Of a DNA stretch of 21,948 nt, positions 1 through 21,948 are shown one piece after another; the first letter of the stretch is position 1; each line of letters opens with the position of its first letter. Under the pieces are notes generated by a model that did not search any database, had not been told where the DNA came from, and worked only from the letters and a program-made list of their open reading frames with translations. The position numbers and the translations under genes are program-made. Source of the stretch: an uncultured virus (IMG/VR IMGVR_UViG_3300002158_000015) (taxonomy: Duplodnaviria > Heunggongvirae > Uroviricota > Caudoviricetes); the IMG/VR virus record IMGVR_UViG_3300002158_000015; one strand, 5' to 3'.

Positions 1-147
1 CTATTGGTTCTGCAAAGCTTTGCTTCTACCGCTCTTTTTCTACCTGTTGACTATCAGATTCCAACTTTGAATGACGCAGCAACTGACGAAGGTATGTGAT
101 TGTATCAATGTGCACTCAAGTACAACGAATCACACTCTGCTTCTCTC

Positions 148-3100
148 ATGTCACTTCTTGCCGCAACCCAGATCCCCAAGCCAGCTGACGAACAAGCTTT
201 CGAGCGCGCTTCAGTTGTGCTGTGGCGCAGCTTGCTCAACGATCGATCGGTGCAGCGGAACGGTCGACGGGGGCAACGACAGAATGGCGTCGATCTCTTC
301 GGAATTCGTGACAATGACACGGATTGGCTGGTTGGCATTCAATGCAAACTCAAAAGTGAAGGACATTTCCTCACAGAGGCAGAAGTTCGCAGTGAGGTCC
401 GGAAGGCTCTGACATTCAAGCCTCTTCTTAGAGAATTCTACATAACGACAACTGCATCGGATGATGTCGCGATGCAGGAACTCGCGCGTGTCATCACGAC
501 GGAGCTAGCGAAATCAAATCACAAACTTCGCGTCTTCGTTTGGGGGTGGAATACGCTGGAAGAAAAAATCAACGAGGATGCCGACGCCCGCAACTCGTTC
601 GATCCAACCTACGACCCGTTCAGTGGGAAACTTCTAGACGAAACGCGGGCGATGCTCGTTGCTCAGCATGAGACACGTGCGGACATGAGCGCTGGCTTCT
701 CTCGTATAGAAGCAATGATCACCGAAGTAAGCGCGCTGAGGGTTGTGCCACCAGGTGACACAACAGTCGCAATGAGCTTGCTTGAGGAGCATCTCGATGC
801 CGAGATCGACGAATATCGCGAACTGAACAACAACGGAAAAACGCTGACCGCATTACCGCTGCTGGAAAGGCTCCTGGATCGTGTCAAGACATCAGCTTCC
901 GGTCGCATCCTCTTCCGCATAAAAGCGAACATCGGCCATTGCCTGGTGGCGCTCGGCAAGGACGATGACGCCGCCGCGATGTTGCTGGCATCCTACAGCC
1001 ACGCGCCTGACGAGCCCAAAGCTGTTGCAAACAAGGCTTTCGGGCACTTGCTGAGGGAGGAATACGAGGAGGTTCTGGCATTCGGAAGCTCAATGCTGGA
1101 AGCCAATCCAACGAATGAATGGCTCGCAGGCTACGTCGTACAGGCCGCCAGGTTCGATACATCGATCAGCGATCCGCTCGGCATCGTTCCTGAACAACTG
1201 CACGCAACTGCTTCAGTTCAGATCGGAAGGATTGATTTCGTCAGACGCAATGGCAAGCCGGGTGATTGGTGGCCGATCGCTCGAAAGGTGTTTGAAGCAC
1301 ATCCCCTGGAGCCTTATGCGATGCAATTTGCAGCGGAGGCTGACCTCGAGGAAATATTAGCAAGTGAAGGCTTTCAAAACCGGCGCCTGCTCTCACCGAC
1401 GGAACGAAGTAGGCTCGAAGCTGCAGCAACAATACTCATTTCACGATGGGATCATGCGAGGGTTGCTGACGGTGCAATACGGCCAGAGGATGCAGCTGTT
1501 TGCTGCAATATCTTGGTTACGCTTCATGCCCTCGGCAACCTGAATGCAGCGATCGACATCGCACATCAAGGGCTCTCGCTAGCGCCTAATGACGTCGAGA
1601 TCATTACCCGCGCAGCCGTAGTCGCCATCGACGCCGATGACGAGCTCTTCGCTCGATCGCTCCTTGCTAAGCTACCGAGAAGTTCGGACGCAGCTGTCCT
1701 AAAGTTCCGATTTCACGCCGCACGTGGAGATTGGGAAGAAGTAGTGCGTATCGCTGAGGATGACGCTTTGTTGATCCCAGCGTCGGAAGCCCCGGCTATC
1801 TTAACGACCGGAAAGCTAGCAAAGATTAAGATCAGTCATGGTGATCAGGAAACGCTCAGGCAACAGATATCCTCTATTGCCTCCGAGGCCTCTGGCGATG
1901 CTCGCGCCAGCATTATCGTCGCTGACTTTGCGCGAAGAGAAGGAATTCAGGGCATTGCTGATGATACCTACAAAGTAGCCCTCACCCATATCAGTGATGA
2001 AAGTCACGTCGCGGACAGGTTGATGGTGGCACATCATGCGGCACGGCGCGGAGATTATTCGATCGTCGTGGACCTGTTGGACAATCATGTAGCGGAAGAC
2101 CATGACAATGACGAATTGCGGACACTTGCACGCGCATTGGTCAATGATTACCCCATCCGGCAGCGTGCCTTGGCTTTCTTCGAACGATTGTCCGTCGAGT
2201 TAAGAGCACTCCCCTTCTTCCTGAATGCTGAAGGTTTGTTGCACTTCAACCGCGGCGCCCTCTCCGAAGCAGAAGCGGCACTCAGAAAGGCCGTCCAGGT
2301 ACGACCGGACCTTGAAAACTACCTTGCGCTCATCTCGGTGCTCTACCGCTCAGATCGAAATGACGAATTGAAAGAGGTCGTTGAAGCAATCGATCTCAAG
2401 ACGGTGGATGGAACACCTGGTCAGAAGATGTTCCTAGCCCAAATCGTGCGAAAGATCGGGGAGGGAGCCAAAGCACTCGAGTACGCCTATGAAGTACTCC
2501 GATCTGCTAGAAATGACCAGAACGCAGCTCTTCGCTATTTCGGTCTCATCATGATGAATCCGGCGGACGGTCTCATCCCGCCTGTTGAAACCGTAGCAGT
2601 TGGAACATGGGTCAGCCTAGAAAGCGATAAGCACGAGACGCATGCGTTCCTCATTGAAGAAGGCAGTGATCGACCTGCCGAGGATATCTTGAGCCCAGCT
2701 CATCCGACTGTTGCGGCGGCCCTTGGTCTGAAGATCAATGACGAATTCGAGATGCCGGCTGGTTTTGGCCGGGTTCGAAAGTGGCGTGTCGTAGAGATCA
2801 AGCACAAATATCTCCACGCTTTGCACGACGTCATGGAGAATTTCGAGAAAAGATTTCCGGATACCAAGGGCTTCTACAAAGTCACGATCGAGGATGACAA
2901 TATCCAGCCAGCGCTGGATCAGGTTCGTCGCGTATCGGAGAGCAATCGAAAGCTCGCCGATCTCTATCTGGAGAACAACTATCCCATCAGCCTAGTTGTC
3001 TCGAGGGGCGACCGCGACGCCATCAGTTTTGTGGACTATATCCGCTTTCTCGACTTCGATATCCGCACGTGCGCAGGCACCGAAGCGGAGCGTGTAGCAG

Positions 3101-4095
3101 CGGAGAAAATACTAAGCGATTACAGACATACTGGCGCGGTCCTTGATACCTACACGGCATGGACAGTTGCCACGATGGATGCTTTCGCAGCACTGAAGTC
3201 GGTGGTTGGATCGGTGATAGTTCCTCAATCCGTTATTGATGAGTTAAGAACGCTAAGAGACGATCAGGAATTTGTTGGCCAAGAGGCGATGACAATCGCT
3301 TGGCATGATGGCGAATACATCAAGCAGGAATTCACTGCAGGCGATGTCGCAGTTCGTCGCAACTATATCATAGAGAAAATCGCCAGGATCGAGGCAGCTT
3401 GCGATATTCGGCCGGTCATTATTGAAAACAAGCCATCTGAGTTGGCGATCTTGACCCACCAATCCTTGGGTGCCCATGTGCTCGACGCGGCTAATCTCGC
3501 AGGAACGAAGCACATTCTCCTCTCCGAGGACATGAACTTCCGCCAGTTTGGTGAAGCAGCCTGTTCAACCAGAGGTGTATGGCTTCAGGCCGTGTTTGCA
3601 TTCGCACGCGCACTCGGAACCATCGACCAGCGTGACTATGTTGATCTTGTTGTAAAACTCGCGTGGCATCGTCACGGCCACCTCTCGTTGGACGCCGCCA
3701 CGTTGCTTGTCGCCTATGAGGACAGTCGAGAGAGAAATCTGGAAAACTTCAAGGCGCTCGCTCATTTTATGGGTACCAAAAATGCAGACATGCGATCGCA
3801 TATCAATGTAGCAGTGGAGTTCCTCAATCAGCTTTGGCTCGTAAGCGACCAGTTCGATGTCGCCTGCCAGCAGGCCACAGGCGTCCTGCTAGAACAGATG
3901 ATACGATATCACTCCACCCATTGGGCGCTTGTTCTTACTTTGATCAAAAGGGAGTGTGCTGCCCCCATCCAGCAGTATATCGGCCGCTGGCTTGTCGGCC
4001 ATTTCCTTCCTACTGAGGATGTCAGCCGCGCAGAAATTCAAATTGAGGAGCGGATGAAGCAACTAAGCGTCAGCCAAGCAAATCGTGGCATTTAG
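148..4095 (+). CDS. Large multidomain candidate defence protein: N-terminal PD-(D/E)xK (Mrr-like) endonuclease, TPR solenoid, GreA/GreB C-terminal-like domain, PIN-like nuclease (~1315 aa)
   Basis: The ORF is open from TTG100, and ATG148 (MSLLAATQIPKP) is the more likely start. Nuclease motifs: FE..GRRGQRQNGVDL (D at 292-294) and GIQCK (QCK 340-348). TPR-like helices: IKANIGHCLVALGKDDDAAAMLLASY and EGLLHFNRGALSEAEAALRKAVQVRPD. GreA/B-C-like segment VAVGTWVSL..ILSPAHPTVAAALGLKINDEFEM..VVEIK (~2593-2802). PIN-like acidic motifs AVLDT (D 3145), VPQSVIDEL, VLDA, LLSEDMNFR. GC is clearly lower than in the phage genes. Confidence 0.85.
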   Translation: MSLLAATQIPKPADEQAFERASVVLWRSLLNDRSVQRNGRRGQRQNGVDLFGIRDNDTDWLVGIQCKLKSEGHFLTEAEVRSEVRKALTFKPLLREFYITTTASDDVAMQELARVITTELAKSNHKLRVFVWGWNTLEEKINEDADARNSFDPTYDPFSGKLLDETRAMLVAQHETRADMSAGFSRIEAMITEVSALRVVPPGDTTVAMSLLEEHLDAEIDEYRELNNNGKTLTALPLLERLLDRVKTSASGRILFRIKANIGHCLVALGKDDDAAAMLLASYSHAPDEPKAVANKAFGHLLREEYEEVLAFGSSMLEANPTNEWLAGYVVQAARFDTSISDPLGIVPEQLHATASVQIGRIDFVRRNGKPGDWWPIARKVFEAHPLEPYAMQFAAEADLEEILASEGFQNRRLLSPTERSRLEAAATILISRWDHARVADGAIRPEDAAVCCNILVTLHALGNLNAAIDIAHQGLSLAPNDVEIITRAAVVAIDADDELFARSLLAKLPRSSDAAVLKFRFHAARGDWEEVVRIAEDDALLIPASEAPAILTTGKLAKIKISHGDQETLRQQISSIASEASGDARASIIVADFARREGIQGIADDTYKVALTHISDESHVADRLMVAHHAARRGDYSIVVDLLDNHVAEDHDNDELRTLARALVNDYPIRQRALAFFERLSVELRALPFFLNAEGLLHFNRGALSEAEAALRKAVQVRPDLENYLALISVLYRSDRNDELKEVVEAIDLKTVDGTPGQKMFLAQIVRKIGEGAKALEYAYEVLRSARNDQNAALRYFGLIMMNPADGLIPPVETVAVGTWVSLESDKHETHAFLIEEGSDRPAEDILSPAHPTVAAALGLKINDEFEMPAGFGRVRKWRVVEIKHKYLHALHDVMENFEKRFPDTKGFYKVTIEDDNIQPALDQVRRVSESNRKLADLYLENNYPISLVVSRGDRDAISFVDYIRFLDFDIRTCAGTEAERVAAEKILSDYRHTGAVLDTYTAWTVATMDAFAALKSVVGSVIVPQSVIDELRTLRDDQEFVGQEAMTIAWHDGEYIKQEFTAGDVAVRRNYIIEKIARIEAACDIRPVIIENKPSELAILTHQSLGAHVLDAANLAGTKHILLSEDMNFRQFGEAACSTRGVWLQAVFAFARALGTIDQRDYVDLVVKLAWHRHGHLSLDAATLLVAYEDSRERNLENFKALAHFMGTKNADMRSHINVAVEFLNQLWLVSDQFDVACQQATGVLLEQMIRYHSTHWALVLTLIKRECAAPIQQYIGRWLVGHFLPTEDVSRAEIQIEERMKQLSVSQANRGI

Positions 4096-4160: not shown

Positions 4161-4365
4161 GCTCAAGCAATTCAAAACGCTTTCAGCCGTGATCCCGCGC
4201 TAAGCTTGGCAACCGGAGTCCGACCGCCTCGACATTCATGTCGACACCCGGATCGATGCCAGCCGACGACTCGATCAGACGGCCGCTCTGCCATTTGACG
4301 ACAGTGCTTTGGGGCGTCGCGACTTCCACTAGCTTCCAGCCGTACCGGCGAGATAGCACTCAAAT
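4161..4365 (-). pseudogene. Diverged remnant copy of the 3' end of the Mu gpF-like gene plus its downstream flank
   Basis: The - strand at 4347->4204 reads RYGWKLVEVATPQSTVVKWQSGRLIESSAGIDPGVDMNVEAVGLRLPS, versus intact gpF RYGWSVDEDAPPERTIIKWQHGRPVEMPAGIDPGFGVNVGVVGLRLPS (29/48 identical, no gaps, offset 1029 bp). AACGCTTTCAGCCG is shared at 4176-4189 and 5205-5218. Confidence 0.88.
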
Positions 4366-4559: not shown

Positions 4560-4856
4560 TTACTTAGCTTTCGGCTTCTTCTTCGAGACGGCCGTGATTT
4601 TCCAGTCGCCCTTGTTCAATTTCGTGATGTCGTATTTTTTCTTGGCGTCCATTTTCGCCTTGTACGAAGCCATGGCGTAAGAGCAGCTCACCGAGCCATC
4701 CGGGTTCGAAGACATCCCGCCACCCACATGTCCGCACCAGGCATCGCAGACTGCTTCCGACCCCTGTGAACAGGTAAGTTTCCCCGCCATTGCATATGAA
4801 GCACTTGCTGCAAGAATAGCCACTGCAGCAGATGCACGAATTACGTATGTAAACAT
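4560..4856 (-). CDS. Small secreted protein (98 aa) with signal peptide, 4 Cys and Lys-rich C-terminus; function unknown
   Basis: ATG4856 is preceded by GGAG (4865-4868). MFTYVIRASAAVAILAASASYAMA is a Sec-type signal peptide ending A-M-A. The mature part has C-x7-C-x3-C-x16-C, then a basic tail ending SKKKPKAK. Confidence 0.75.
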   Translation of the reverse strand: MFTYVIRASAAVAILAASASYAMAGKLTCSQGSEAVCDAWCGHVGGGMSSNPDGSVSCSYAMASYKAKMDAKKKYDITKLNKGDWKITAVSKKKPKAK

Positions 4857-5229: not shown

Positions 5230-5904
5230 TCAACTGGGCAACCGGAGCCCGACGACCCCAACATTCACACCAAAGCCCGGATCGATGCCGGCCGGCATCT
5301 CGACCGGACGGCCGTGTTGCCACTTGATGATGGTGCGTTCGGGCGGCGCGTCCTCATCAACCGACCAGCCGTAGCGAGCGATATCCCGCGCCGACAGGGA
5401 CTGCACGTAGCAGCGACAGTTCCAGCCGTTCGGCGGATAATGCGTTTGCCACCAGTCGTGGTCGACAGGAAGGATGACCCCATGCCAGGCGGCGTGTTCC
5501 TCGCGGCTGCCTGGTTGCGTGAGCGCCGGGTCGACATGGACGTAGCGAAGATAGGGCCTGATATGTTTCAGCCGCTGGATCTGCTGCCAGCGCCCCGCGG
5601 CATAGGCCTGCGCGGTGGCGATACGAAAGGCGAGCGCGGCGCGCCGGCCGTCGCTCTCCCAGCCGTGCCGCTCGACGATCCCGTCCCATTCGGCCAGGAA
5701 CCCCGGCAGGCCCGTGCCCTCCTCCAGCGCGTCGAGCACGGCCTGCGTGATGTCATGCACCAGCGCATCGCTCATGCCGGCGGCGCGGTCGGTTGCCCCG
5801 GCGTCGACGGCGCGCAACAGTTCGAGCCAGCGTTCGGGCGGCAGCGCCAGCCGGCGTCGCAGGAAATCGATAGCCTCGTCGAAACGCACGCCGCTAGTCG
5901 CCAC
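5230..5904 (-). CDS. Mu gpF/gp30-like minor head morphogenesis protein (short form, 224 aa)
   Basis: Motifs AYAAGRWQQ, RPYLRY, SREEHAAWHGVILPVDHDWWQTHYPPNGWNCRC, GIDPGF. Directly follows the portal gene. Confidence 0.92.
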   Translation of the reverse strand: MATSGVRFDEAIDFLRRRLALPPERWLELLRAVDAGATDRAAGMSDALVHDITQAVLDALEEGTGLPGFLAEWDGIVERHGWESDGRRAALAFRIATAQAYAAGRWQQIQRLKHIRPYLRYVHVDPALTQPGSREEHAAWHGVILPVDHDWWQTHYPPNGWNCRCYVQSLSARDIARYGWSVDEDAPPERTIIKWQHGRPVEMPAGIDPGFGVNVGVVGLRLPS

Positions 5905-7462
5905 GGTCGACCTCCGCCGCCTCGCCGGCCAGCCAGGCCAGAAGCATCGCCTGCCGCAGCGCGGTCACCAGCTCGGCCGGCGTGCGCTCGACCGCGGCAA
6001 CGCGAAACAGAACCGCCTCGGCCGCCTCCAGGCTGCCGGCGCGGCCAACCAACCCGCGCACGCGGTCGACTAACGCGGCTACAGCCGGCGCACCGAGATT
6101 CGCGCCCTGCTGCCCGATCAGCTCGTCCGGCAAGGCGGCGGCTGGCGTGTGCTGATGCTGCAGCGCAGGCTTCTCTCGGGGCTTTTCCGACCGCTCGGCC
6201 CTGCCCGGCTCTTTCGGCACCGCCGGCGCCAGCACCTCGTCCTGCGGGCCGGGTTCGGCCAGGCCGAACTTGTCGCGGATCTCCGAGGCCTGCACCCTGA
6301 GCCCGATCGGCACCAGCTGTGACAGCGCCGTCGACAATTGCGCCAGGTCCTCCTTTTCCGGCCGGGCGATGGTTAGCCGCGGATAGGCTTTCTGCGGCCC
6401 GTATTCGAGGTCGATCCACAGCCTGACCAGATCGCGGTTGAGGATCGCGGCCAGCGCGCGGGCGTCGGCGCGCTCGATGTCCTCCTGCACCTTGCGGTGT
6501 TCCTCCGACACGGCATGGCCGCCGGAGATGGCGTCTGTCGTCGTGGTCTGGCCGAGCACCGCCTTGGAGACCTGCCGGTCCAGCCAGTCGACGCGCTTTT
6601 CATAAAGGTCGATCGAGGCGCCGATCGATTTCGCCTCGACGAACTCGATCGCCATGCCGTCCGGCATGATCGCGGCGCAATCGCCAGCGATATTGGCCAC
6701 CGCCCGATAGAGCTTGCGCTTGTCGTCGTCGGTGGCGTCGGCGCCATATTTGCCGATGCGGATCGGCTGCCCATAGGTCTGGGTGAAGATCGCCCAGTCG
6801 CGGTTGGCGAAGGCCTTGAACATCCAGGCCCAGGCGGCGACGCGCGCCAGGCCGGAACGCATCGGCAGGCCGGACTTCGCCTTCATCACCGCGAAGATGA
6901 ATTCGCCGGGCGGCAGCGGCAGTTCGCGGCCGTCCTCGTCCAGCATCAGCGGCGTGGCGAGATCCTGCCTGGCGAAACGGAACCAGCGCTGGTCCCAGCG
7001 GTCGAGCCGCTTCGGCTGCCATTGCCCTTCCGATGTGTCCCATTGGATGCGGGTGAAGGAATAACCCTTGCCGACGCTGTCCAGCACGTCGAAGGTCTCG
7101 TCCTGCAATTCGTCGCGCTGCAGCCAGGCGCGGATCCGGTCCGCCTTCTCGACATCGGCGGCGGCATCGCTTGCGGCATCCACCGTCACCTCGAGCTGCG
7201 CCACCGACCGTTTGCGGGTGCCGATGACGCCGAGATAATGCAGGTCGCGTTCCTCGATCTGTTCGGCGAGCTCGAGATAGCGCACCGGGTCGCCCTGGTC
7301 GGCTTCGCGTAGGATGGCGGCGAGCCTGATCGGGTTCAGCCCGTCTGCCGGATAGCCTGACATTGGCGAGCGCACACCGGTCAGCGTCGGCCCCTCGCGT
7401 TCCTGCACCAGCGCTTTCCGGTCTATCGGCCTGCCATAGGCGTCGAGGATCTGCACCATCAC
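5894..7462 (-). CDS. Portal protein (Mu gp29 / DUF935 family)
   Basis: ILDAYGRPI N-terminus, LAEQIEERDLHY, DWAIFTQTYGQPIRIGKY, QVSKAVLGQTTTTD. Lies between terminase and gpF. Start is GTG7462 or ATG7459. Confidence 0.93.
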   Translation of the reverse strand: MMVQILDAYGRPIDRKALVQEREGPTLTGVRSPMSGYPADGLNPIRLAAILREADQGDPVRYLELAEQIEERDLHYLGVIGTRKRSVAQLEVTVDAASDAAADVEKADRIRAWLQRDELQDETFDVLDSVGKGYSFTRIQWDTSEGQWQPKRLDRWDQRWFRFARQDLATPLMLDEDGRELPLPPGEFIFAVMKAKSGLPMRSGLARVAAWAWMFKAFANRDWAIFTQTYGQPIRIGKYGADATDDDKRKLYRAVANIAGDCAAIMPDGMAIEFVEAKSIGASIDLYEKRVDWLDRQVSKAVLGQTTTTDAISGGHAVSEEHRKVQEDIERADARALAAILNRDLVRLWIDLEYGPQKAYPRLTIARPEKEDLAQLSTALSQLVPIGLRVQASEIRDKFGLAEPGPQDEVLAPAVPKEPGRAERSEKPREKPALQHQHTPAAALPDELIGQQGANLGAPAVAALVDRVRGLVGRAGSLEAAEAVLFRVAAVERTPAELVTALRQAMLLAWLAGEAAEVDRGD

Positions 7463-8841
7463 CAGGTCCCTCCCCGGATCGAGGCGCCGAGCGGCCCGCG
7501 AAAGGCATCGTCGTCGCCGAAATCATCGTCGTCCGCACGCTCGAAGCCGCGCCTGTTCAATGCCGCTTCACGGCGGCTTGAAACCGGCTCGTAGCCATAT
7601 TGGTAACGCGGGCCGGCGGCGGCATTGACCGCCAGGAAACAGGCCCAGGCGCGGTCGGCATGGTCGTCGTCGCGTTCGGCGACGAAGCGCGGCGCGCCGG
7701 TCGGACCGGCCACCTTGCGCAATTTGTGCAGGTCGGACCGCAAGGCCGGCCGCCCTTCGGGAATACGGATGGTGCGGTCCTCGAAACGTTCCTTGCCCGC
7801 CGTCGCCATCACCAGCTTGTTCGGCCCGGTAAACAGGACACCCTCGATGCGGTGTTCGCCATAACGGCGCTGCGCATCCTCGACAGGCTTTTCACCCATG
7901 CCAGTCTGGTCCATGCAGGCCCGGCCGACGCGGTAGCGCCGCATCACCTCGTCCAGCGCCTGGTCCTGCGCGGCGAAGGTGGCGCGCTTCATCTCGACGA
8001 TCTCGCGCGTCCACAAAACGTCGCCGACCTGTTCCAGCACCCAGATGACGAAGAGGTCGTTGCGGCGGCCGATGTCGACGCCGACGAAGCAAACGCCGCC
8101 CTGATAGGCTTCCGGCTCGCCGGCCCGCGCATCCTCGACCGAACTGATCAGTTCGTAGGACAACCAGCTCGACGCCTCGTCGAGATATTTCAGCTCGTAT
8201 TCCTGCGCCCAGGCATCCTCGTCGGCGAGGCCGGCGCGCAGTTCCTCGATGTCGCGCGGCAGTCCGTCGGCCACCGCCTGGTAGATATCGACGGCATGGC
8301 GCGACCAGGCGCTGTCGGTACCGGTGTCGAGCTCGTAGAACTTGCCCGACTTGCCGTTGGGCGTGGACGTGACACGCAGCTTCCAGCCGGCCGAGATCAC
8401 CGGAAACAGCGCCTTCCAGATGGCGGCGCTGTCCTTGTGGAAGGCGAATTCGTCGAGGAAGACATTGGCCGAAAAACCGCGCGCCGTATCGGGATTGGCG
8501 GGCAGCGCCAGGATACGCGAGCCGTGCGGCAACGCCACTTCGAGCGCGGTGTATCGGACCGCGCCGATATCGTAGTCCTGCTCATACTCCTGGAAAGTCA
8601 TGCCATAGGCCCTGGCATGCAGCTTGACGCCCTCGTCCATCGCCTCGCGCGCCTGGCGTTCGCCGCGCGACAGGATCACCCAGCGCGTGCGCGCCTGCCT
8701 GACTACATGTTCGAAACTGTCGTCGACGGTCTCCAGCGTCGTCGTGAAGGTCTTGCCGGTCTGTCGCGCGAACTTGCCCAGCTTGAAGCGGGAGCGGTCG
8801 TCGAACCAGCGGCGCTGGTAGCCATAGAGGATCGGCCGCAT
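7459..8841 (-). CDS. terL: Terminase large subunit (Mu gp28-like, 460 aa)
   Basis: LYGYQRRW, Walker A ARQTGKT, Walker B VFLDEFAFH, TSTPNG, nuclease GVDIGRRND and HADRAWA. ATG8841 overlaps the upstream stop (TGATG). Confidence 0.93.
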   Translation of the reverse strand: MRPILYGYQRRWFDDRSRFKLGKFARQTGKTFTTTLETVDDSFEHVVRQARTRWVILSRGERQAREAMDEGVKLHARAYGMTFQEYEQDYDIGAVRYTALEVALPHGSRILALPANPDTARGFSANVFLDEFAFHKDSAAIWKALFPVISAGWKLRVTSTPNGKSGKFYELDTGTDSAWSRHAVDIYQAVADGLPRDIEELRAGLADEDAWAQEYELKYLDEASSWLSYELISSVEDARAGEPEAYQGGVCFVGVDIGRRNDLFVIWVLEQVGDVLWTREIVEMKRATFAAQDQALDEVMRRYRVGRACMDQTGMGEKPVEDAQRRYGEHRIEGVLFTGPNKLVMATAGKERFEDRTIRIPEGRPALRSDLHKLRKVAGPTGAPRFVAERDDDHADRAWACFLAVNAAAGPRYQYGYEPVSSRREAALNRRGFERADDDDFGDDDAFRGPLGASIRGGTW

Positions 8842-13072: not shown

Positions 13073-13516
13073 ATGCGCAAGATTCTTGTGGGCATTGCTT
13101 TGGTTGTATTGGCCGGCTGTGCGACAACCAGCGAAATGCCGCTGGCGCCTAATGTGGTGCGTCTCGACACACAGGCCAGCGGCGCCCTCTTTGTAGGTTC
13201 CGCTCCATCCATAACGATGAAGAAGGCAGCCGAGGCGACGCTTGCGCGCGGCTATTCGCATTTCCGGCTTGAGCAAGCCACGATGGCCTCCGGCAGCCGG
13301 CTGGTAGGCATGCAGACCCAGACCAGCGGGGTCGGTACGGCAACTGTCTACGGCAACAACGCTTACGGCACATACAACGGCACCAGCTTCTCGACACCCG
13401 TTTATGCACGCACGGCAAACATCGGCGTCACCGTCATCATGTTCCACGCCAATGAAGCCGGAGCACGCGGCGCTTTCGATGCACAGCAGGTGTTGAAGAA
13501 GGGCGGCAAGATCTAA
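13073..13516 (+). CDS. Lipoprotein (moron), function unknown
   Basis: MRKILVGIALVVLAGC is a signal peptide II with lipobox LAGC. Has a G/T/S/Y-rich segment, is antisense to the phage operon and has lower GC. Confidence 0.85.
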   Translation: MRKILVGIALVVLAGCATTSEMPLAPNVVRLDTQASGALFVGSAPSITMKKAAEATLARGYSHFRLEQATMASGSRLVGMQTQTSGVGTATVYGNNAYGTYNGTSFSTPVYARTANIGVTVIMFHANEAGARGAFDAQQVLKKGGKI

Positions 13517-13552
13517 CTCATGGCACCCGACTGGAAGGCATGACGACAATCC

Positions 13553-14185
13553 ATGCACCGTTTCGCAGAACTGATCACCACCCTGCTGATAGGCATTTGC
13601 GCGGGTCTTGCCTTGGGAGGCATGACCGAGTTGGAATTTCGGCTGTATGACTGGCAGACCCTCATAGCAGGCATCTTGGCAGTCGGCGCAGCAGCAATCA
13701 CCCTTTTTGAGATGCGGAGGACGGAAGCAGCTCAGGGCAAGCGGCACAACGACCTTTTGCGTTTGTCTCTTCGGCAAGACCGAATGACTATCGAGCGCTG
13801 CTCTGCGCGAGCGGTTGGATGCCGAACGATGGTAGTGAGCTACAATGAATGGCTCGCTGCTGTAGCAGCGGATCCCACAAGCCTCAAACTTTGGCCCAAT
13901 CTTCGAAATATCGTCGATCGGTTCGTCTCTCTCCAGACTTTCGATGACGCAAAGAGCCTGTTTCCACCAGAGATGCATCATCGATTCTTGAGCATCAATA
14001 GATTTCACGGAAAACTGACAGACATGGTCGCGGCATACACATCCGGCGGTTCCCCAATGAGTGTTTCTCGCCAGCTGCGGCGCGCGAAAATTGTCGTCGA
14101 GCGATTGACCGATCACCTCACTGTTTTCGCGAACGAGCTTGAGGCTCTCCGGAAAGAATTTGAGATTGCAGAAGTACGTCACTGA
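13553..14185 (+). CDS. Membrane protein with two N-terminal TM helices (moron), function unknown
   Basis: Hydrophobic segments LITTLLIGICAGLALGGM and WQTLIAGILAVGAAAITLF, then a helical soluble domain. The stop lies 2 nt from the convergent DUF3164 stop. Confidence 0.75.
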   Translation: MHRFAELITTLLIGICAGLALGGMTELEFRLYDWQTLIAGILAVGAAAITLFEMRRTEAAQGKRHNDLLRLSLRQDRMTIERCSARAVGCRTMVVSYNEWLAAVAADPTSLKLWPNLRNIVDRFVSLQTFDDAKSLFPPEMHHRFLSINRFHGKLTDMVAAYTSGGSPMSVSRQLRRAKIVVERLTDHLTVFANELEALRKEFEIAEVRH

Positions 14186-17087: not shown

Positions 17088-19217
17088 CTAAAGACTGAGC
17101 GCGGCGCGACCGAATTCATCCAGCATCTGCCGCATGGCCCGGTATTCGGAGCCCTGGCGGTAACCGCCGAGCCACACCAGATCCTGTGGCCGCGCCGGCT
17201 CGCCGCGACCGACACGCTCCTCGATGTCGAGCGCACGCCGAAAGCGCTGCTCGCGCGTTTCCGGCAAGGCGACGACCGCCGGGCTGGCATCGGCCAGAAG
17301 CCGCGCATGGATGTCAGCGGCCTCTTCGGAAAGCGCGGCGGGTTCGTTGCGCGCGCTCGCCCGCGCCGCGGCATCGAGCGCCGGCGTGACATGTGCCTGT
17401 GTCGGCCGCGGGAAGGCGACGAGATTGCCCGCCCGTTTCTCGCCGGCGCGGCGCATGGCGTCGGCCACGGCGCGCGGCCCGATGCGGCGCATCTCCTGGC
17501 GGATGTCCTTGATGCGGCCGTCGAGATGCGCCTTTTGCGCCGCCTTGACGCGGGCAATTGTCGAGACGGGGTCGAGGCCGGCGAGTTCCGGGCAGACCGC
17601 CTCGCCGAGGAAGCTGGTGCCGTCCGGTTCGAACAGGAGGATGCGACCCATATCGGCCGGGTCCATGCGGCAGAACACCGTGCGGCCGGGCATGACCGAC
17701 CCCGACAAATAATGCGCGCCGTCGATGCGGATGCCGGTCTTGGCGACGGTGCGCAAACCGTCCTTGCCAGCGACCGGCGCCAACAGGATGTCGAGCGCCG
17801 CAAGATTGTCGATGCGCCGGATCGGTCCGGAAAAGCTCGCCGCGGCCTGGAACGGGGTGCGCCGGCCGAGCCCCTCATGCGGCGTCGAGGCATAGATTGT
17901 GTCCGCCCAGTCGTCGCACCAGGCCTGGAAGTCGGCGAGGTCCATGTCGACGCCGAACAGTTCGGACGGATCGGCGCCGAGCCGCTGCGCGAACGCCTTG
18001 CGGCCTTCCAGCTTCTTGCGATCGGCGACCGAATGGCCGACGAAACCCGGCAGGCCGGCGAGATCGCGCTGGAAGGTGCCGATGGCACGTTCGACCATGC
18101 CTTTCGAACGTGGCTGATAAGGCGGCGACAGTTCCGTCTCGATGCCGAGCAGCGCGAAAAGCCGCTCCGTCGCCTGTGCGGTAAAATCCGAACCGTTGTC
18201 GGTCTTGACCTTTTCCGGCACGCCCCAGGCGAGCAGGCATTTGCGCATCAACAGACCGACGCCGGCGGCGCGTGGTGTCGGTGTCGCCAGCACCTTGATG
18301 CGGCGGGAAAAGGCGTCGATCGCCAGATAGATCGAATGGCGGCCTTCCTTCAGCATGATGTCGGCCGGCGAGGCGTCGATTTGCCAGAGCTGGTTGAGCC
18401 GCTCGGCCCTGGTCGCGCCTACCGCCGCATATTCGATGCGGCTGCGGAACCCGTCGGGATCGGTGAGCAGCATCAGCTCGTGACTGTAGTCCCGGCGCCA
18501 GATGGCGAGCTGGCGCTGCAGCGTTCTGAGCGCCGGCGCCTCGAAGGTATCGCCGAAGCGATCACGGATCAGCTCCAGCGCCCGGCCGGCCGAAAGGAAC
18601 GGCATCTTGGCGATCGCGGCCAGGAGCACACTGCGCACCTGGCCGTCCAGCGCCCGGTCGAGCTGGCTCGATCCCTTGCGCGCGACGGCCGGATCGTGGC
18701 CGAGCCGGTCGGCCTGGCCGGCGTCGCGGGCCGAGCGCCAGCGTGCCAGCGAACGACCGCTGGCACGCTTGACCTGCGTCTGCACCCAGGCCGGAAGCGC
18801 GATTGAACGACTGTTGAACAGGTTTGCCACAAGATCGTCGGCGGCGGCCAGCGATAGCCCCTGCTCGCGGCGGAAACGGTCGGCCACGGCGGTGAGCGCC
18901 AGCCTGGCGTCGCGCTCGCCGCGCGCCCGCATGGTCAAGCCATCGCCACCGGTCAGCACCGGCCGCACATCGTCCTGTTCGATGCGGCAATGGCGGCCGG
19001 CATGGGCAAGCCTGGCCGACAGCGGCAACAGGTCGAGATGGAACTCGGTGCCGCCGCCGCCTTCGCGGCCTTCGCGCCGGCGGCACAGGCTGGCGTGCCG
19101 GTCCCAGCCTTCCCGCGCGATCAGCATGTTCATGCCGCGTTTGGTCGTCGGCAGGCCGGGCAGTTCGCCGGCGGCGGCAAGGGCGGCGAATTCGGCGGCG
19201 GTGAACCAGACCTTCAT
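17088..19217 (-). CDS. MuA-type DDE transposase (709 aa)
   Basis: N-terminal Mu HTH (LPGLPTTKRG..REGW..GGGGTEFH..LP). DDE triad in WQIDASPAD, KTDNGSDF, KGMVERAI. C-terminal GIRIDGAHY..DPADMGRI. Confidence 0.95.
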   Translation of the reverse strand: MKVWFTAAEFAALAAAGELPGLPTTKRGMNMLIAREGWDRHASLCRRREGREGGGGTEFHLDLLPLSARLAHAGRHCRIEQDDVRPVLTGGDGLTMRARGERDARLALTAVADRFRREQGLSLAAADDLVANLFNSRSIALPAWVQTQVKRASGRSLARWRSARDAGQADRLGHDPAVARKGSSQLDRALDGQVRSVLLAAIAKMPFLSAGRALELIRDRFGDTFEAPALRTLQRQLAIWRRDYSHELMLLTDPDGFRSRIEYAAVGATRAERLNQLWQIDASPADIMLKEGRHSIYLAIDAFSRRIKVLATPTPRAAGVGLLMRKCLLAWGVPEKVKTDNGSDFTAQATERLFALLGIETELSPPYQPRSKGMVERAIGTFQRDLAGLPGFVGHSVADRKKLEGRKAFAQRLGADPSELFGVDMDLADFQAWCDDWADTIYASTPHEGLGRRTPFQAAASFSGPIRRIDNLAALDILLAPVAGKDGLRTVAKTGIRIDGAHYLSGSVMPGRTVFCRMDPADMGRILLFEPDGTSFLGEAVCPELAGLDPVSTIARVKAAQKAHLDGRIKDIRQEMRRIGPRAVADAMRRAGEKRAGNLVAFPRPTQAHVTPALDAAARASARNEPAALSEEAADIHARLLADASPAVVALPETREQRFRRALDIEERVGRGEPARPQDLVWLGGYRQGSEYRAMRQMLDEFGRAALSL

Positions 19218-19663
19218 CGGCCGGCCCTCCATTTCGCCTCGACCGTCTGCTTCATCCTGGCGAGGTCCTTTTCATGCTCCTCGATCAGATGCAGCTCGAT
19301 CAGCGACTGGTAACGGCCGGGCACCACGACATGGTCGAACAGGCCGGCGACGAAACCGAGCAGGTCGAGGCAGCCTGTGGCGGTGACCAGCGCCACGAAA
19401 CGTTCCAGCGTGATGCGGTGGCTTTCCTTGGCTTCGGAAGCATAGGCGTCGAGCATGTCGGCGCTGACCGGGTAGCCGAGTTCCGAACTCATCGCCTCGG
19501 CCACCTCGGCGCGGCTCTTGCCGCATTCCTTAAGAGCCAACGAGACGGCGCGGCTGATGCGCGAACCCAGCCGGTTGCCGGAAAGGTCCGCCTCGAACCC
19601 CACCGCCACTTTTGGCGGCTGCCAGTCGAACAGGTCGGCGGTGAAGCGGTCGCGGGATTTCAT
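19214..19663 (-). CDS. Conserved phage regulatory/HTH-like protein upstream of the transposase (149 aa)
   Basis: ATGA overlaps at both ends. Motif SRAEVAEAMS..VSADMLDAYASEAKESHRI. Confidence 0.78.
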   Translation of the reverse strand: MKSRDRFTADLFDWQPPKVAVGFEADLSGNRLGSRISRAVSLALKECGKSRAEVAEAMSSELGYPVSADMLDAYASEAKESHRITLERFVALVTATGCLDLLGFVAGLFDHVVVPGRYQSLIELHLIEEHEKDLARMKQTVEAKWRAGR

Positions 19664-20508
19664 CGAAACCATCCGCGCGCCCTGGCATGCACCCTGATCG
19701 CCGCTTCATGCGTATCGAGGAAGGCGCTGCGCTGGCGTTCCGACAGCCGCGACCAGTTTCCGAGTGTCGAGGCGAACAGTTTTTCGGCCGTGGTCAAAAG
19801 GCGCCGCCCTTCGACCAGGGCAAGCGCATCGGCGACGCTGGCGGCCTCGGGCGGCGAAGCGAACAAAATGTCGAGGATGCGCGCCTGCACGGCCGGTTTC
19901 TGTTCCGACAAGAGTTTCAACCCGGCCTGGTGGTCTTCCAGCCAGTTGCCGCACAGGCGGACCTTGCTGTCTTCGGAGAGCGCCGAGACGATCTGCACCG
20001 CCACCTCGATGGCGCGACGTGACAGGCCGGTCATCTCGGCGGCTTCCTGGCTGAACGCAAAGATTTCGCTTTGGCGGACCATGCCGCCGCTGTGCTGGTT
20101 GCCGCGCCGGCCGCCGCGCCTGGCCTCTGGGAAACGCGCCTCATGCGCCGATTTCAGCGCCACCAGATGTTCGGCCCGCTCCAATTTGGTCAGGTCGTGG
20201 CGATCGAGGTTCTCGACGATCTCGATCAGCCGTCGTCCGGCCTCGTCCAGCGTTCCGGCGGCGATGACGCGGGCATCGATCTCGGCCTCGCCGGCCTTCA
20301 TTAACGCCGCCAGGCGCTTGGCACCGGCGATCAGCCGGAAACGGCCATTCTTCAGAGCCTCGACATTGACCGGCTGCAGGAGACCGATGGCGCGCGATGT
20401 CTTGGCGATGGTCTCGACACGAGCGGCACGCACTGCCGACAAGCGGTCTTCCGGCACGTCGATCAGCGCGACCGCGATGCGCTGGAACGTTGCCCGCGCG
20501 CCGGCCAT
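19660..20508 (-). CDS. ParB/Srx-like N-terminal domain protein with HTH (282 aa)
   Basis: GLLQPVNV..FRLIAGAKRLAA..EIVENLDRHDL, then HTH FSQEAAEMTGLSRRAIEVAV. RBS GGAGGGG before ATG20508. Confidence 0.85.
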   Translation of the reverse strand: MAGARATFQRIAVALIDVPEDRLSAVRAARVETIAKTSRAIGLLQPVNVEALKNGRFRLIAGAKRLAALMKAGEAEIDARVIAAGTLDEAGRRLIEIVENLDRHDLTKLERAEHLVALKSAHEARFPEARRGGRRGNQHSGGMVRQSEIFAFSQEAAEMTGLSRRAIEVAVQIVSALSEDSKVRLCGNWLEDHQAGLKLLSEQKPAVQARILDILFASPPEAASVADALALVEGRRLLTTAEKLFASTLGNWSRLSERQRSAFLDTHEAAIRVHARARGWFR

Positions 20509-20539
20509 CAGCGCCCCTCCCCGGCAACTTGCCGATGCG

Positions 20540-20580
20540 AAAAAATGCGCCCGCCGCCTGGGGGTGGAGCGGCGGGCGCA
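20540..20580 (-). terminator. Intrinsic terminator within the early operon
   Basis: Perfect 12-bp GC-rich stem TGCGCCCGCCGC (20546-20557) / GCGGCGGGCGCA (20569-20580) with an 11-nt loop, followed on the - strand by 6 T (A run 20540-20545). Confidence 0.72.
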
Positions 20581-20626
20581 CCGACCGCGACCGATGGGGG
20601 GCAAACGGTCACGGATTGGAAGGCGG

Positions 20627-20878
20627 TCAAAGCGCTTTCCTCATCAGCCAGATGGCCAGCGACAGGCAGATCAGCCCGACGGTGCCGGCGACGAAATGGG
20701 CAAGCGTGGAGCCACCCATCATGAGGTCGATGGACAGCACGGCGGCGACGATGTTGGAGGCAATCAGCACCAGAGCGATTACTGTGATCGGCCAGTTGCG
20801 CCGCGGCGGCGGCTCCGGCGCGCCGAAGACGCGGTTCCTGTCGGTTTCGTCGCGATTTTCGGACCGCCGTCGCATCAT
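20627..20878 (-). CDS. Small two-TM membrane protein (83 aa)
   Basis: ATGA overlap with the ner stop, GGAGGG RBS, and two hydrophobic helices. Confidence 0.72.
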   Translation of the reverse strand: MMRRRSENRDETDRNRVFGAPEPPPRRNWPITVIALVLIASNIVAAVLSIDLMMGGSTLAHFVAGTVGLICLSLAIWLMRKAL

Positions 20879-21186
20879 CGAGCCCCCTCCTGGTCCGTAC
20901 CACTTCGAGCCTTTTGACTCGCTTCCTTTACCGGCGCGGTGCTAGGGAAAAGACGCCGCCTGCCGTTCGGCCAATAGCGGTCGGGCCATAGGGTCTGCAC
21001 CGGTATGCCGAGCGCCGCCGCGATCGCGTTCTCCGCCTTCGGGTAGGATGAGCCGAGCGCGGCCGAGATTTCCGAGGCGGAGACGGGCGTATGCCGGGCA
21101 AAGGCGCTTAAAGTGCCATACCGGCGCTTGATCTCCGCCAGGATCGCGTGTCGGTCGTATCGGGTCGTGTGCTTGCCCTTGTGCAC
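20875..21186 (-). CDS. ner: Ner-like transcriptional regulator (103 aa)
   Basis: GTG21186. DRHAILAEIKRRYGTLSAFAR..YPKAENAIAAALGIPVQTLWPDRY matches the Ner/Nlp signature. Divergent from the repressor. Confidence 0.88.
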   Translation of the reverse strand: MHKGKHTTRYDRHAILAEIKRRYGTLSAFARHTPVSASEISAALGSSYPKAENAIAAALGIPVQTLWPDRYWPNGRRRLFPSTAPVKEASQKARSGTDQEGAR

Positions 21187-21238
21187 GGCTCTACCCTGAA
21201 GTGACCGGGCGGCCCGCCGCCGAACCGGTCGAGAGCAG

Positions 21239-21293
21239 TTTCTGGTTTTCCAGATGGTCCAGAAATGGACTAAAGTCAACAGAATTGGACCAT
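21239..21293. promoter_or_regulatory. Divergent repressor/ner control region with candidate operators and early promoter
   Basis: Direct repeats CAGAAATGGACTA (21260-21272) and CAGAATTGGACCA (21280-21292). Inverted pair ATGGTCCA (21254-21261) / TGGACCAT (21286-21293). A - strand TTGACT at 21279-21274. Confidence 0.6.
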
Positions 21294-21300
21294 AGCGCCG

Positions 21301-21948
21301 GTGGATAACCAAGAAAACAACAATCACCAGTCCGAATGGCCAAGGGGCGACGAGCCGTGGCGGCGCTGGCTGAAGCGCGTGGTCGGCAGCCATGGCGGCC
21401 CGTCGGCCATCGCCCGGCTGGCCGAGATCCCGCTGCAGACACTGAAGAATTACATGAACGGCACCACGCTGAAGCCGAACCTCGATTATCTGCGCCGCAT
21501 TGCCGATAGCTGCGCCGAACCGATGGACTGGCTGCCGGAACAGGGTCGCGCCGACGCCCTGCCCGCAGACTTCATGCCCGTGAATGGTGATGGCAGCGAT
21601 GTCGCGCGCTACAGTGGCGGCACGCTCACTTTCGGGGCACGGCCACAGACCGGCCGCTCGCGCTGGCGGGTGATGAGCCGCGCCATCGAACTGGCCGGCT
21701 TTCTGCCCGGCGATATCCTGGAATTCAGCGCGACGAAGAAGCCGCGCGACGGCGAACCGGTCGTCGCCGAGATCCGCAATAGCGACGGCGATCTCGCAAC
21801 CGTCCTGCGCATCTACAAGCCGCCCTTCCTGATGATGCACACCGCCGATCTCGCCGTCGATATGCGCCCGATCCCGATCGAGGCCGAGGACATCGTCGTG
21901 CGCCTGCTCGGCGGTTTCGTCATGATGCTGCGCTACGCGGTGGATTGA
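21301..21948 (+). CDS. Prophage repressor: XRE-type HTH plus degenerate S24 peptidase-like domain
   Basis: HTH GGPSAIARLAEIPLQTLKNYMNG..PNLDYLRRIA..MDWL. C-terminal RVMSRAIELAGFLPGD..PRDGEPVVAEI..ATVLR. Divergent from ner. Confidence 0.88.
   Translation: MDNQENNNHQSEWPRGDEPWRRWLKRVVGSHGGPSAIARLAEIPLQTLKNYMNGTTLKPNLDYLRRIADSCAEPMDWLPEQGRADALPADFMPVNGDGSDVARYSGGTLTFGARPQTGRSRWRVMSRAIELAGFLPGDILEFSATKKPRDGEPVVAEIRNSDGDLATVLRIYKPPFLMMHTADLAVDMRPIPIEAEDIVVRLLGGFVMMLRYAVD

Follow-up and report, generated by a model that had tools for sequence, protein, structure and literature searches.

A one-gene REase-TPR-GreA/B-C-PIN polypeptide as a candidate anti-phage receptor-effector in an exchangeable defense slot of a Mu-like prophage

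Proteins of the TPR-GreA/B-C-PIN (TGP) type combine a constant core, in which tetratricopeptide repeats (TPRs) are followed by a GreA/GreB C-terminal-like (Gre-C) domain and a PIN domain, with variable N-terminal effectors. The study that defined the TGP systems (PMC8195603) lists a restriction endonuclease (REase) domain among 13 effectors and proposes that Gre-C docks on beta-prime, that PIN cleaves the transcript and that killing serves as a back-up; a search of its source-data file 1 gave 1,035 occurrences of the label REase+TPR, and most of the displayed rows have it twice. Here we describe a gene at positions 148..4095 (+ strand) of a 21,948-nucleotide stretch of DNA from an uncultured Caudoviricetes virus (IMG/VR record IMGVR_UViG_3300002158_000015; the whole stretch is referred to as the window) that encodes a REase-TGP protein of 1315 amino acids (aa). 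With its constant core, its standalone gene and its REase effector it has an architecture identical to that given in the available text of PMC8195603, and the available part of section 7 of that study makes no mention of carriage by Mu-like prophages. We consider it rather probable that the gene product is a prophage-carried, single-gene anti-phage receptor-effector acting by abortive infection (Abi), with its ligand left open; an anti-phage role as such is very likely.

One TGP protein, Agp from Escherichia coli ECOR25, has been studied together with its partner Bab (bioRxiv 10.1101/2024.11.07.622273). According to the available text of this preprint, the Agp/Bab pair is located in prophage defense islands and blocks T5 and four Drexlerviridae phages by Abi; Agp without Bab is inactive and gave no protection against T5 or T145 phages; the Gre-C mutants S628L and L634P lose function, and so does the PIN mutant D762N, but the latter protein is unstable. 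By the published description, the protein studied here resembles Agp in its TGP core with Gre-C and PIN, in its location in a prophage defense island and in the Abi response that is to be expected; it differs in that Agp carries an N-terminal BASS11 amyloid motif and relies on a separate membrane effector, whereas here a fused enzyme takes that place and no partner gene is found. Neither an N-terminal BASS11 motif nor an adjacent Bab gene is present at this locus, the N-terminus being a folded nuclease and the upstream neighbor the divergent gpI gene. Avs3/Avs4 and CBASS Cap4 likewise couple a D..QxK nuclease of the Mrr-like type to a repeat or ligand sensor, and oligomerization activates the nuclease. 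However, the Pfam scan of our protein revealed neither a STAND NTPase nor a SAVED domain, no NTPase family was matched in the PADLOC and NCBIfam scans either (the latter gave nothing specific), and the length of the protein is accounted for by its other domains. The portions of PMC13092281 (text and supplement) searched showed no TGP system. The gene product is best described as a new member of an already described and partly validated family, in a one-gene form that awaits experiment. An earlier note on this DNA, made from its letters alone, knew of no mechanistic characterization of the REase-fused form; no such test came to light in the literature searched, but the 2021 source data contain many entries with this architecture, and the core, in the form of Agp, has undergone genetic testing.

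The reading frame from 148 to 4095 runs without a stop through 1315 codons, and ATG148 is its likely start because 14 close homologs begin almost alike, with MS[LA]LAA[TS]QI as the common N-terminus. The single gene of about this length, its motifs and its codon positions (D49, 292-294; K67, 346-348; D1000, 3145-3147) are as the earlier note had given them, and so are its GC content, which is lower than that of the phage late genes (0.533 vs. 0.677), and its orientation, which is convergent with the late gene gpF. AlphaFold2 models cover aa 1-351 and aa 690-1315, with aa 352-689 lying outside them, and the domain-by-domain comparison that had been proposed, made here with AlphaFold2, Foldseek and VIA, returned the nuclease, Gre-C and PIN folds.

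The N-terminal domain (aa 1-155; 148..612, + strand), for which an Mrr-like D..QxK motif had been claimed, bears an E..D..QxK site on an alpha/beta core, as do Mrr-like PD-(D/E)xK nucleases. D49, Q65 and K67 are present in 50 of 50 aligned homologs (41-71% identical) and E19 in 48 of them. In the model of aa 1-351 (pLDDT 92), the alpha/beta domain leads into a helix of 41 residues, then a flexible linker and the first TPRs, and VIA aligned 1y88 with aa 14-155 of the model (Z 12.2, rmsd 2.7, 118 aligned). The helix (aa 157-197) and the low-confidence linker (aa 198-204) together form a tether between nuclease and TPRs (616..738, + strand). A weak Pfam match to Mrr_cat_2 (aa 38-103, E 0.036) and the best Foldseek row, MspJI (4f0p), would be in keeping with direct restriction, a process in which the cell would survive while the domain cleaves phage DNA that is modified or foreign. 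We regard this as very improbable: the resemblance to MspJI is weak and incomplete (E 1.5e-3, TMq 0.27), no reader domain for DNA modifications was found in the Pfam scan or in the fold searches with the two models, the same core carries non-nuclease outputs in other proteins, and Agp acts by Abi.

The TPR-like helices of the earlier note correspond to a solenoid of aa about 205-802 (760..2553, + strand), to which several Pfam TPR families (aa 450-512 and 684-795) and fold matches (aa 205-351 and 690-802) were assigned; these repeats stand N-terminal of the Gre domain. The latter (aa 809-887; 2572..2808, + strand), likewise recognized earlier, falls just below the Pfam cut-off (PF01272, aa 814-885, E 1.5e-5, 25.3 bits vs. 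26.9) and was aligned by VIA with GreA 1grj (Z 11.3, rmsd 1.6, 72 aligned), while Foldseek ranked 2pn0 first for this region. Since several TPR alignments cross the Gre domain into the following helix, the model suggests that Gre-C is looped out of the solenoid. It shares the C-terminal globular fold with GreA, GreB, Gfh1 and Rnk but differs from them in that no N-terminal coiled coil was detected, in its embedding in a TPR array and in an eroded Gre motif, with H852 at the position of GreA S124 and A858 at that of L130.

The PIN domain (aa about 994-1165; 3127..3642, + strand) matches the Pfam family PF20698 (PIN-TPR-GreABC; aa 998-1136, E 4e-20, 72.9 bits, cut-off 27.8), and VIA placed it with the PIN structures 2mdt, 1y82, 1o4w and VapC 5k8j (Z 9.0-9.2). 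Its acidic residues D1000, D1113 and D1128 are invariant in the 50 homologs, 43 of which also have E1032. Among 103 more distant sequences, D1000 is found in all, D1128 and R1132 in 100 each and D1113 in 68, while the E1032 position holds 40 E and 21 D; the retained acids that had been pointed out in a PIN-like domain are thus borne out. A C-terminal helical domain follows (3643..4092, + strand), which Atlas placed in unnamed clusters only and in which H1176 (99/103) and H1218 (94/103) are conserved. TPRs ahead of a Gre domain, Gre-C, a PF20698 PIN domain with an acidic site and a variable N-terminus together fit the definition given in PMC8195603, which argues for a receptor-effector; the assignment to the TGP family stands, and the catalytic residues in the nuclease and the PIN domain are intact.

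How the PIN domain contributes bears on a two-tier scheme in which Gre-C binds RNA polymerase (RNAP) at the beta-prime coiled coil, PIN cuts phage transcripts first, and the REase either acts as a reserve or is set free along with it. The genuine Gre-C fold, the PIN acids as the best-conserved residues of the core, the folding of aa 690-1315 as a single unit (pLDDT 89, pTM 0.83) and the loss of defense in the Agp Gre-C and PIN mutants are all in its favor, but we judge it unlikely, as Agp alone protected against neither T5 nor T145 phages, its PIN mutant protein is unstable, the Gre motif is degenerate and PIN shows variation at its second and third acids. The earlier proposal that a DNase and an RNase are both released is not supported, since Agp, which has PIN and no REase, is inactive without its partner effector. 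Although its catalytic acids are kept, PIN probably has a role in sensing or structure or supplies a minor second activity, and is probably not the main killer; the REase is the likely candidate for this function.

Of 8000 scored candidates, 174 were homologs at E<=0.001, and the TGP core was found in 1,738 clusters (50% identity) at E<=0.001 and in 319 at 1e-30. When 150 genomes from the same family were examined, three had PF20698, two of them above the cut-off, and such a patchy distribution speaks for the receptor-effector reading. Plasmid records matched in 35 cases, 12 of them over most of the length, while no match was obtained among 50,697 GenBank phage records, in E. coli genomes (blastn) or in a viral fold library (E<=0.001). 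Carriage by phages is unusual for this clade, since only one viral contig other than our own (L058, with integrase, capsid and portal genes nearby) holds a homolog.

Near-full-length sequences (n = 103) have N-termini of different kinds: 60 carry an REase, 36 are short (a class that includes fragments or mis-called starts) and seven are of other types, including HNH-like and SMEK. On an unrooted core tree of 101 sequences the N-terminal label changes 17 times (mean of shuffled labels, 35.5). Judged from these comparisons, the N-terminus is a swappable output on a constant core, and this, together with the conserved nuclease residues, argues for a receptor-effector. A search for shorter REase relatives yielded mostly short or cut records. 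One short clade (24-31% identical to our protein) carries an amyloid-like motif of the SVAxxGDNxGxI type, which appears to be BASS11 from the residues quoted in the preprint (bioRxiv 10.1101/2024.11.07.622273), and in five of five loci inspected (L275-L279, two of them near-duplicates; six were found) an upstream open reading frame (ORF) of 62-83 aa with a hydrophobic stretch ends in the same type of motif, an arrangement like that of Bab and Agp; this is possibly an amyloid-signaling pair whose membrane effector is simple and differs from Bab. Two unusual homologs were also seen: in P0121 (L006) the C-terminal half is fused to an S46 peptidase annotation, and P0163 is a REase-TGP protein of 2467 aa with a long extension.

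We surveyed the neighborhoods of 46 loci with near-full-length homologs (351 ORFs within 6.5 kb, called with a home-made program; 261 proteins scanned with Pfam and 101 chosen ones with PADLOC). A PADLOC match at E<=1e-40 lay within about 6.5 kb in 16 of the 46 loci, as opposed to none of 14 random 13-kb windows (145 proteins; four of 18 windows were dropped for size). CBASS, BREX, type I restriction-modification, Septu, IetAS, short Argonaute, AbiE, Upx, GajB-like, ShosTA and other systems were represented in the positive loci. This enrichment, for which the earlier note had proposed to look, is a further reason to regard the protein as an anti-phage receptor-effector; many homologs lie on repABC plasmids or on DNA resembling integrative and conjugative elements (ICEs), and many of the other loci are plasmid-like or unremarkable. 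A conserved partner gene was ruled out, as the tightly spaced upstream genes belong to unrelated groups, and the gene thus stands alone without conserved neighbors, in line with the TGP definition. At three loci in plasmid-like DNA (L008, L011 and L021), the TGP start lies 12 bases downstream of the end of a helix-turn-helix (HTH) gene and an Abi_2/PD-T4-5-like gene, which suggests co-transcription.

The gene lies inside a Mu-like prophage and not beside it, as the earlier note had it, because the late genes continue upstream of window base 1 with protease gpI, capsid gpT, gpG, a gene transfer agent-type tail and a D12 methyltransferase. It occupies a central place in this region, on the opposite strand, between gpI and the Mu gpF-like gene that forms one flank of this accessory slot (5230..5904, - strand; PF04233, E 3e-15). 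In a sister provirus (L060/G211) both flanks show 93-94% identity, but the segment from about window -8 to 4348 is replaced by a gene for a 1346-aa protein. Positions 1..147 (+ strand) thus belong to the upstream part of the swapped cassette, with homology to the sister resuming at about window -8. At its other edge the 3' end of gpF is present a second time, in diverged form (4176..4354, - strand; 74% nucleotide identity, 29 of 48 aa identical to the C-terminus of the resident gpF), and this copy points to a recombination scar and to capture of the cassette from another Mu-like phage. The 1346-aa sister protein (L060:4698-8735) is NACHT/DUF8371-like, with an apparent PD-(D/E)xK-like C-terminus when read by eye; Atlas placed it with NACHT-domain clusters (score 0.99), and Pfam and PADLOC gave no match.

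To place this exchange in context, 129 loci were fetched with gpI or the portal, 102 of which (not dereplicated) have both genes in order; the gpG-gpI spacing is only about 200 bases in most of them. In all, 30 selected proteins were scanned with PADLOC and 42 with Pfam, 26 and 25 of them, respectively, from among 84 slot ORFs. Among the relatives whose gpI is 60% or more identical, 12 are distinct, and six of these carry defense-type cargo in the slot, namely the NACHT-like gene (L060), PD-Lambda-4A (L061, E 6e-304), Cas13a with a seven-repeat array (L066, E 3e-251), PD-Lambda-5 (L067), a PifA-like gene (L074) and PDC-S49 (L081); the slots of the other six contain small unknown genes, a possible PIN gene or phage genes, or are empty. 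PDC-S20, AriAB-like, PLD and HNH genes occupy the slots of more distant relatives. The gpF-gpI slot is an exchangeable site for defense cassettes in alphaproteobacterial Mu-like prophages, a fresher result than the gene itself, and both the exchange for a NACHT-like gene and the cargo of the relatives speak for an anti-phage receptor-effector. In Pseudomonas Mu-like phages an anti-CRISPR locus is situated between gene G and the protease gene (in the available text of PMC3993853 and PMC4378225). The likeness consists in a low-GC accessory region directly upstream of the protease/scaffold gene; however, that locus holds counter-defense genes, while here gene G lies past the capsid genes and the cargo consists of host-protecting systems.

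The Cas13a locus (L066:4556-8700, identical with L182, a Chelativorans alearense record) lies in the gpF-gpI slot of a Mu-like prophage and comprises a 1225-aa Cas13a followed by seven repeats of 36 nucleotides and six spacers of 29-30 nucleotides. No ORF for cas1 or cas2 was called in this slot, the spacers had no convincing target among the loci compared, and a limited literature search gave no report of the arrangement. Several further slot genes are candidate defense genes by location (L074:6213-8676, L079:7315-8694, L081:5812-6837, L170:13079-14212 and L118:7341-8684; DUF2806, possible PIN, HNH, PLD and uncharacterized).

The company kept in the slot also bears on the idea that the gene is not anti-phage at all but an anti-plasmid or element-stabilizing toxin, or a silent passenger. 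The many homologs on repABC plasmids or ICE-like DNA would suit this idea, as would the lack of promoter or RNA support for the gene here: a sigma-70 scan found no site in 1..147 (the one site found, against 3.5 expected, lies inside the gene), and the four contig sets that span the stretch list no differences and are uninformative on expression. With 1315 intact codons, conserved active sites, no conserved partner gene, a slot otherwise filled by anti-phage systems and Agp as an anti-phage relative, we hold this to be a slim prospect.

Taking the domains, conserved sites, cassette exchange and defense neighborhoods seen at this locus as a starting point, we envisage the anti-phage receptor-effector to work as follows. 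In the lysogen, a promoter of its own, presumed to lie within 1..147 and facing the late operon, would drive production of the protein, which would be held inactive. The TPR-GreC-PIN core would then detect infection by another phage, a step for which an intact Gre-C is needed in Agp and would be needed here as well. The signal would most likely be a phage-altered or hijacked RNAP, and, failing this, a phage protein or RNA to which TPR, Gre-C or PIN binds; that RNAP is what is sensed is a suggestion that we make with less than even confidence. Sensing may cluster the core and bring the N-terminal modules together, so that the core would switch on an amyloid seed in Agp and a DNase here; the clustered Mrr-like nuclease would degrade DNA, and the infected cell would die, to the benefit of the lysogen population and its prophage. 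The anti-phage role by Abi suggested in the earlier note is in line with the proven action of Agp and with the hotspot and neighborhood evidence.

Several points weigh against this reading. Clustering and DNase activation are drawn by analogy, and the literature searched, in which relevant work may have been missed, held no experiment on any REase-fused TGP protein. PADLOC v2.0.0 has no model matching the full length (short matches in the PIN region only, E>=5e-4); a named family exists in the form of TGP (PF20698), but the PADLOC check suggested earlier did not provide one. Thirty of the 46 homolog loci have no strong defense match among the neighbors scanned (four of these loci are near-duplicates of positive ones and several are short contigs). 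Conservation within the core is highest at D1000, D1128 and R1132, and this speaks for the importance of PIN catalysis. The Gre motif is eroded among the 103 sequences (Ser position, S in 34 and H in 62; P in 42; R in 23 and K in 22), and the Arg column has R in 23 of 103 TGP sequences compared with 22 of 25 Gre factors, a set chosen from 34 loci by that very motif, which inflates the contrast at constrained columns and leaves the Arg column unconstrained. Finally, GreA S121P abolishes RNAP binding while GreA S124L retains it (available text of PMC7527559), and the Agp Gre-C mutants are therefore no proof of RNAP contact.

A 98-aa ORF with a signal-peptide-like start (4560..4856, - strand; ORF call) lies outside the swapped cassette, is common to the sister phage and had no meaningful family match in the Pfam, PADLOC and NCBIfam scans. 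A Mu-like portal and large terminase follow at 5894..8841 (- strand; PF06074, PF03237, PF17289), and the early end of the same prophage, from a Mu-like transposase to a repressor-like HTH gene, is at 17088..21948 (no strand assigned; Pfam, 93% nucleotide match to the sister element). In the early-middle part, two genes of lower GC content run on the opposite strand (13073-14185, + strand); they encode a lipoprotein-like product (NF047637, below cut-off) and a 210-aa membrane-type protein and are possibly further morons. A second swap slot past the tail-end methyltransferase holds a MrcB_N-HNH gene here (L001:16059-17000) and a KAP NTPase (PDC-S20) in the sister (L256:8440-9936), and a third variable region past the repressor holds a low-GC block of other genes here (L002:7847-12966) and a type VI retron reverse transcriptase with an HTH gene in the sister (L255:1-1354). 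Both sister elements have the same tyrosine integrase (L001:16974-19723; 96% nucleotide identity), which here adjoins tRNA-Val, and short direct repeats recur about 47 kb apart (at window-relative positions of about -19,400 and +28,050 to +28,240); an island bounded by the integrase may include the Mu-like element.

In a broader and decidedly tentative view, the protein would be an NTPase-free counterpart of NLR receptors, in which a recycled Gre domain watches the transcription machine and converts RNAP take-over by a phage into clustering and DNA destruction, and which rides in an exchangeable gpF-gpI slot shared with NACHT, PD-Lambda-4/5, KAP NTPase and Cas13a-array systems. If this is true, new systems could be sought in the gpF-gpI slot of Mu-like siphophages from alphaproteobacteria. 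The slot lends guilt-by-location to several uncharacterized genes of related prophages. TGP proteins are widespread, and a one-gene DNase form makes it simpler to address what they sense than does a two-gene amyloid system; this form lets the guarding of RNAP, and the role of PIN as effector or sensor, be asked directly.

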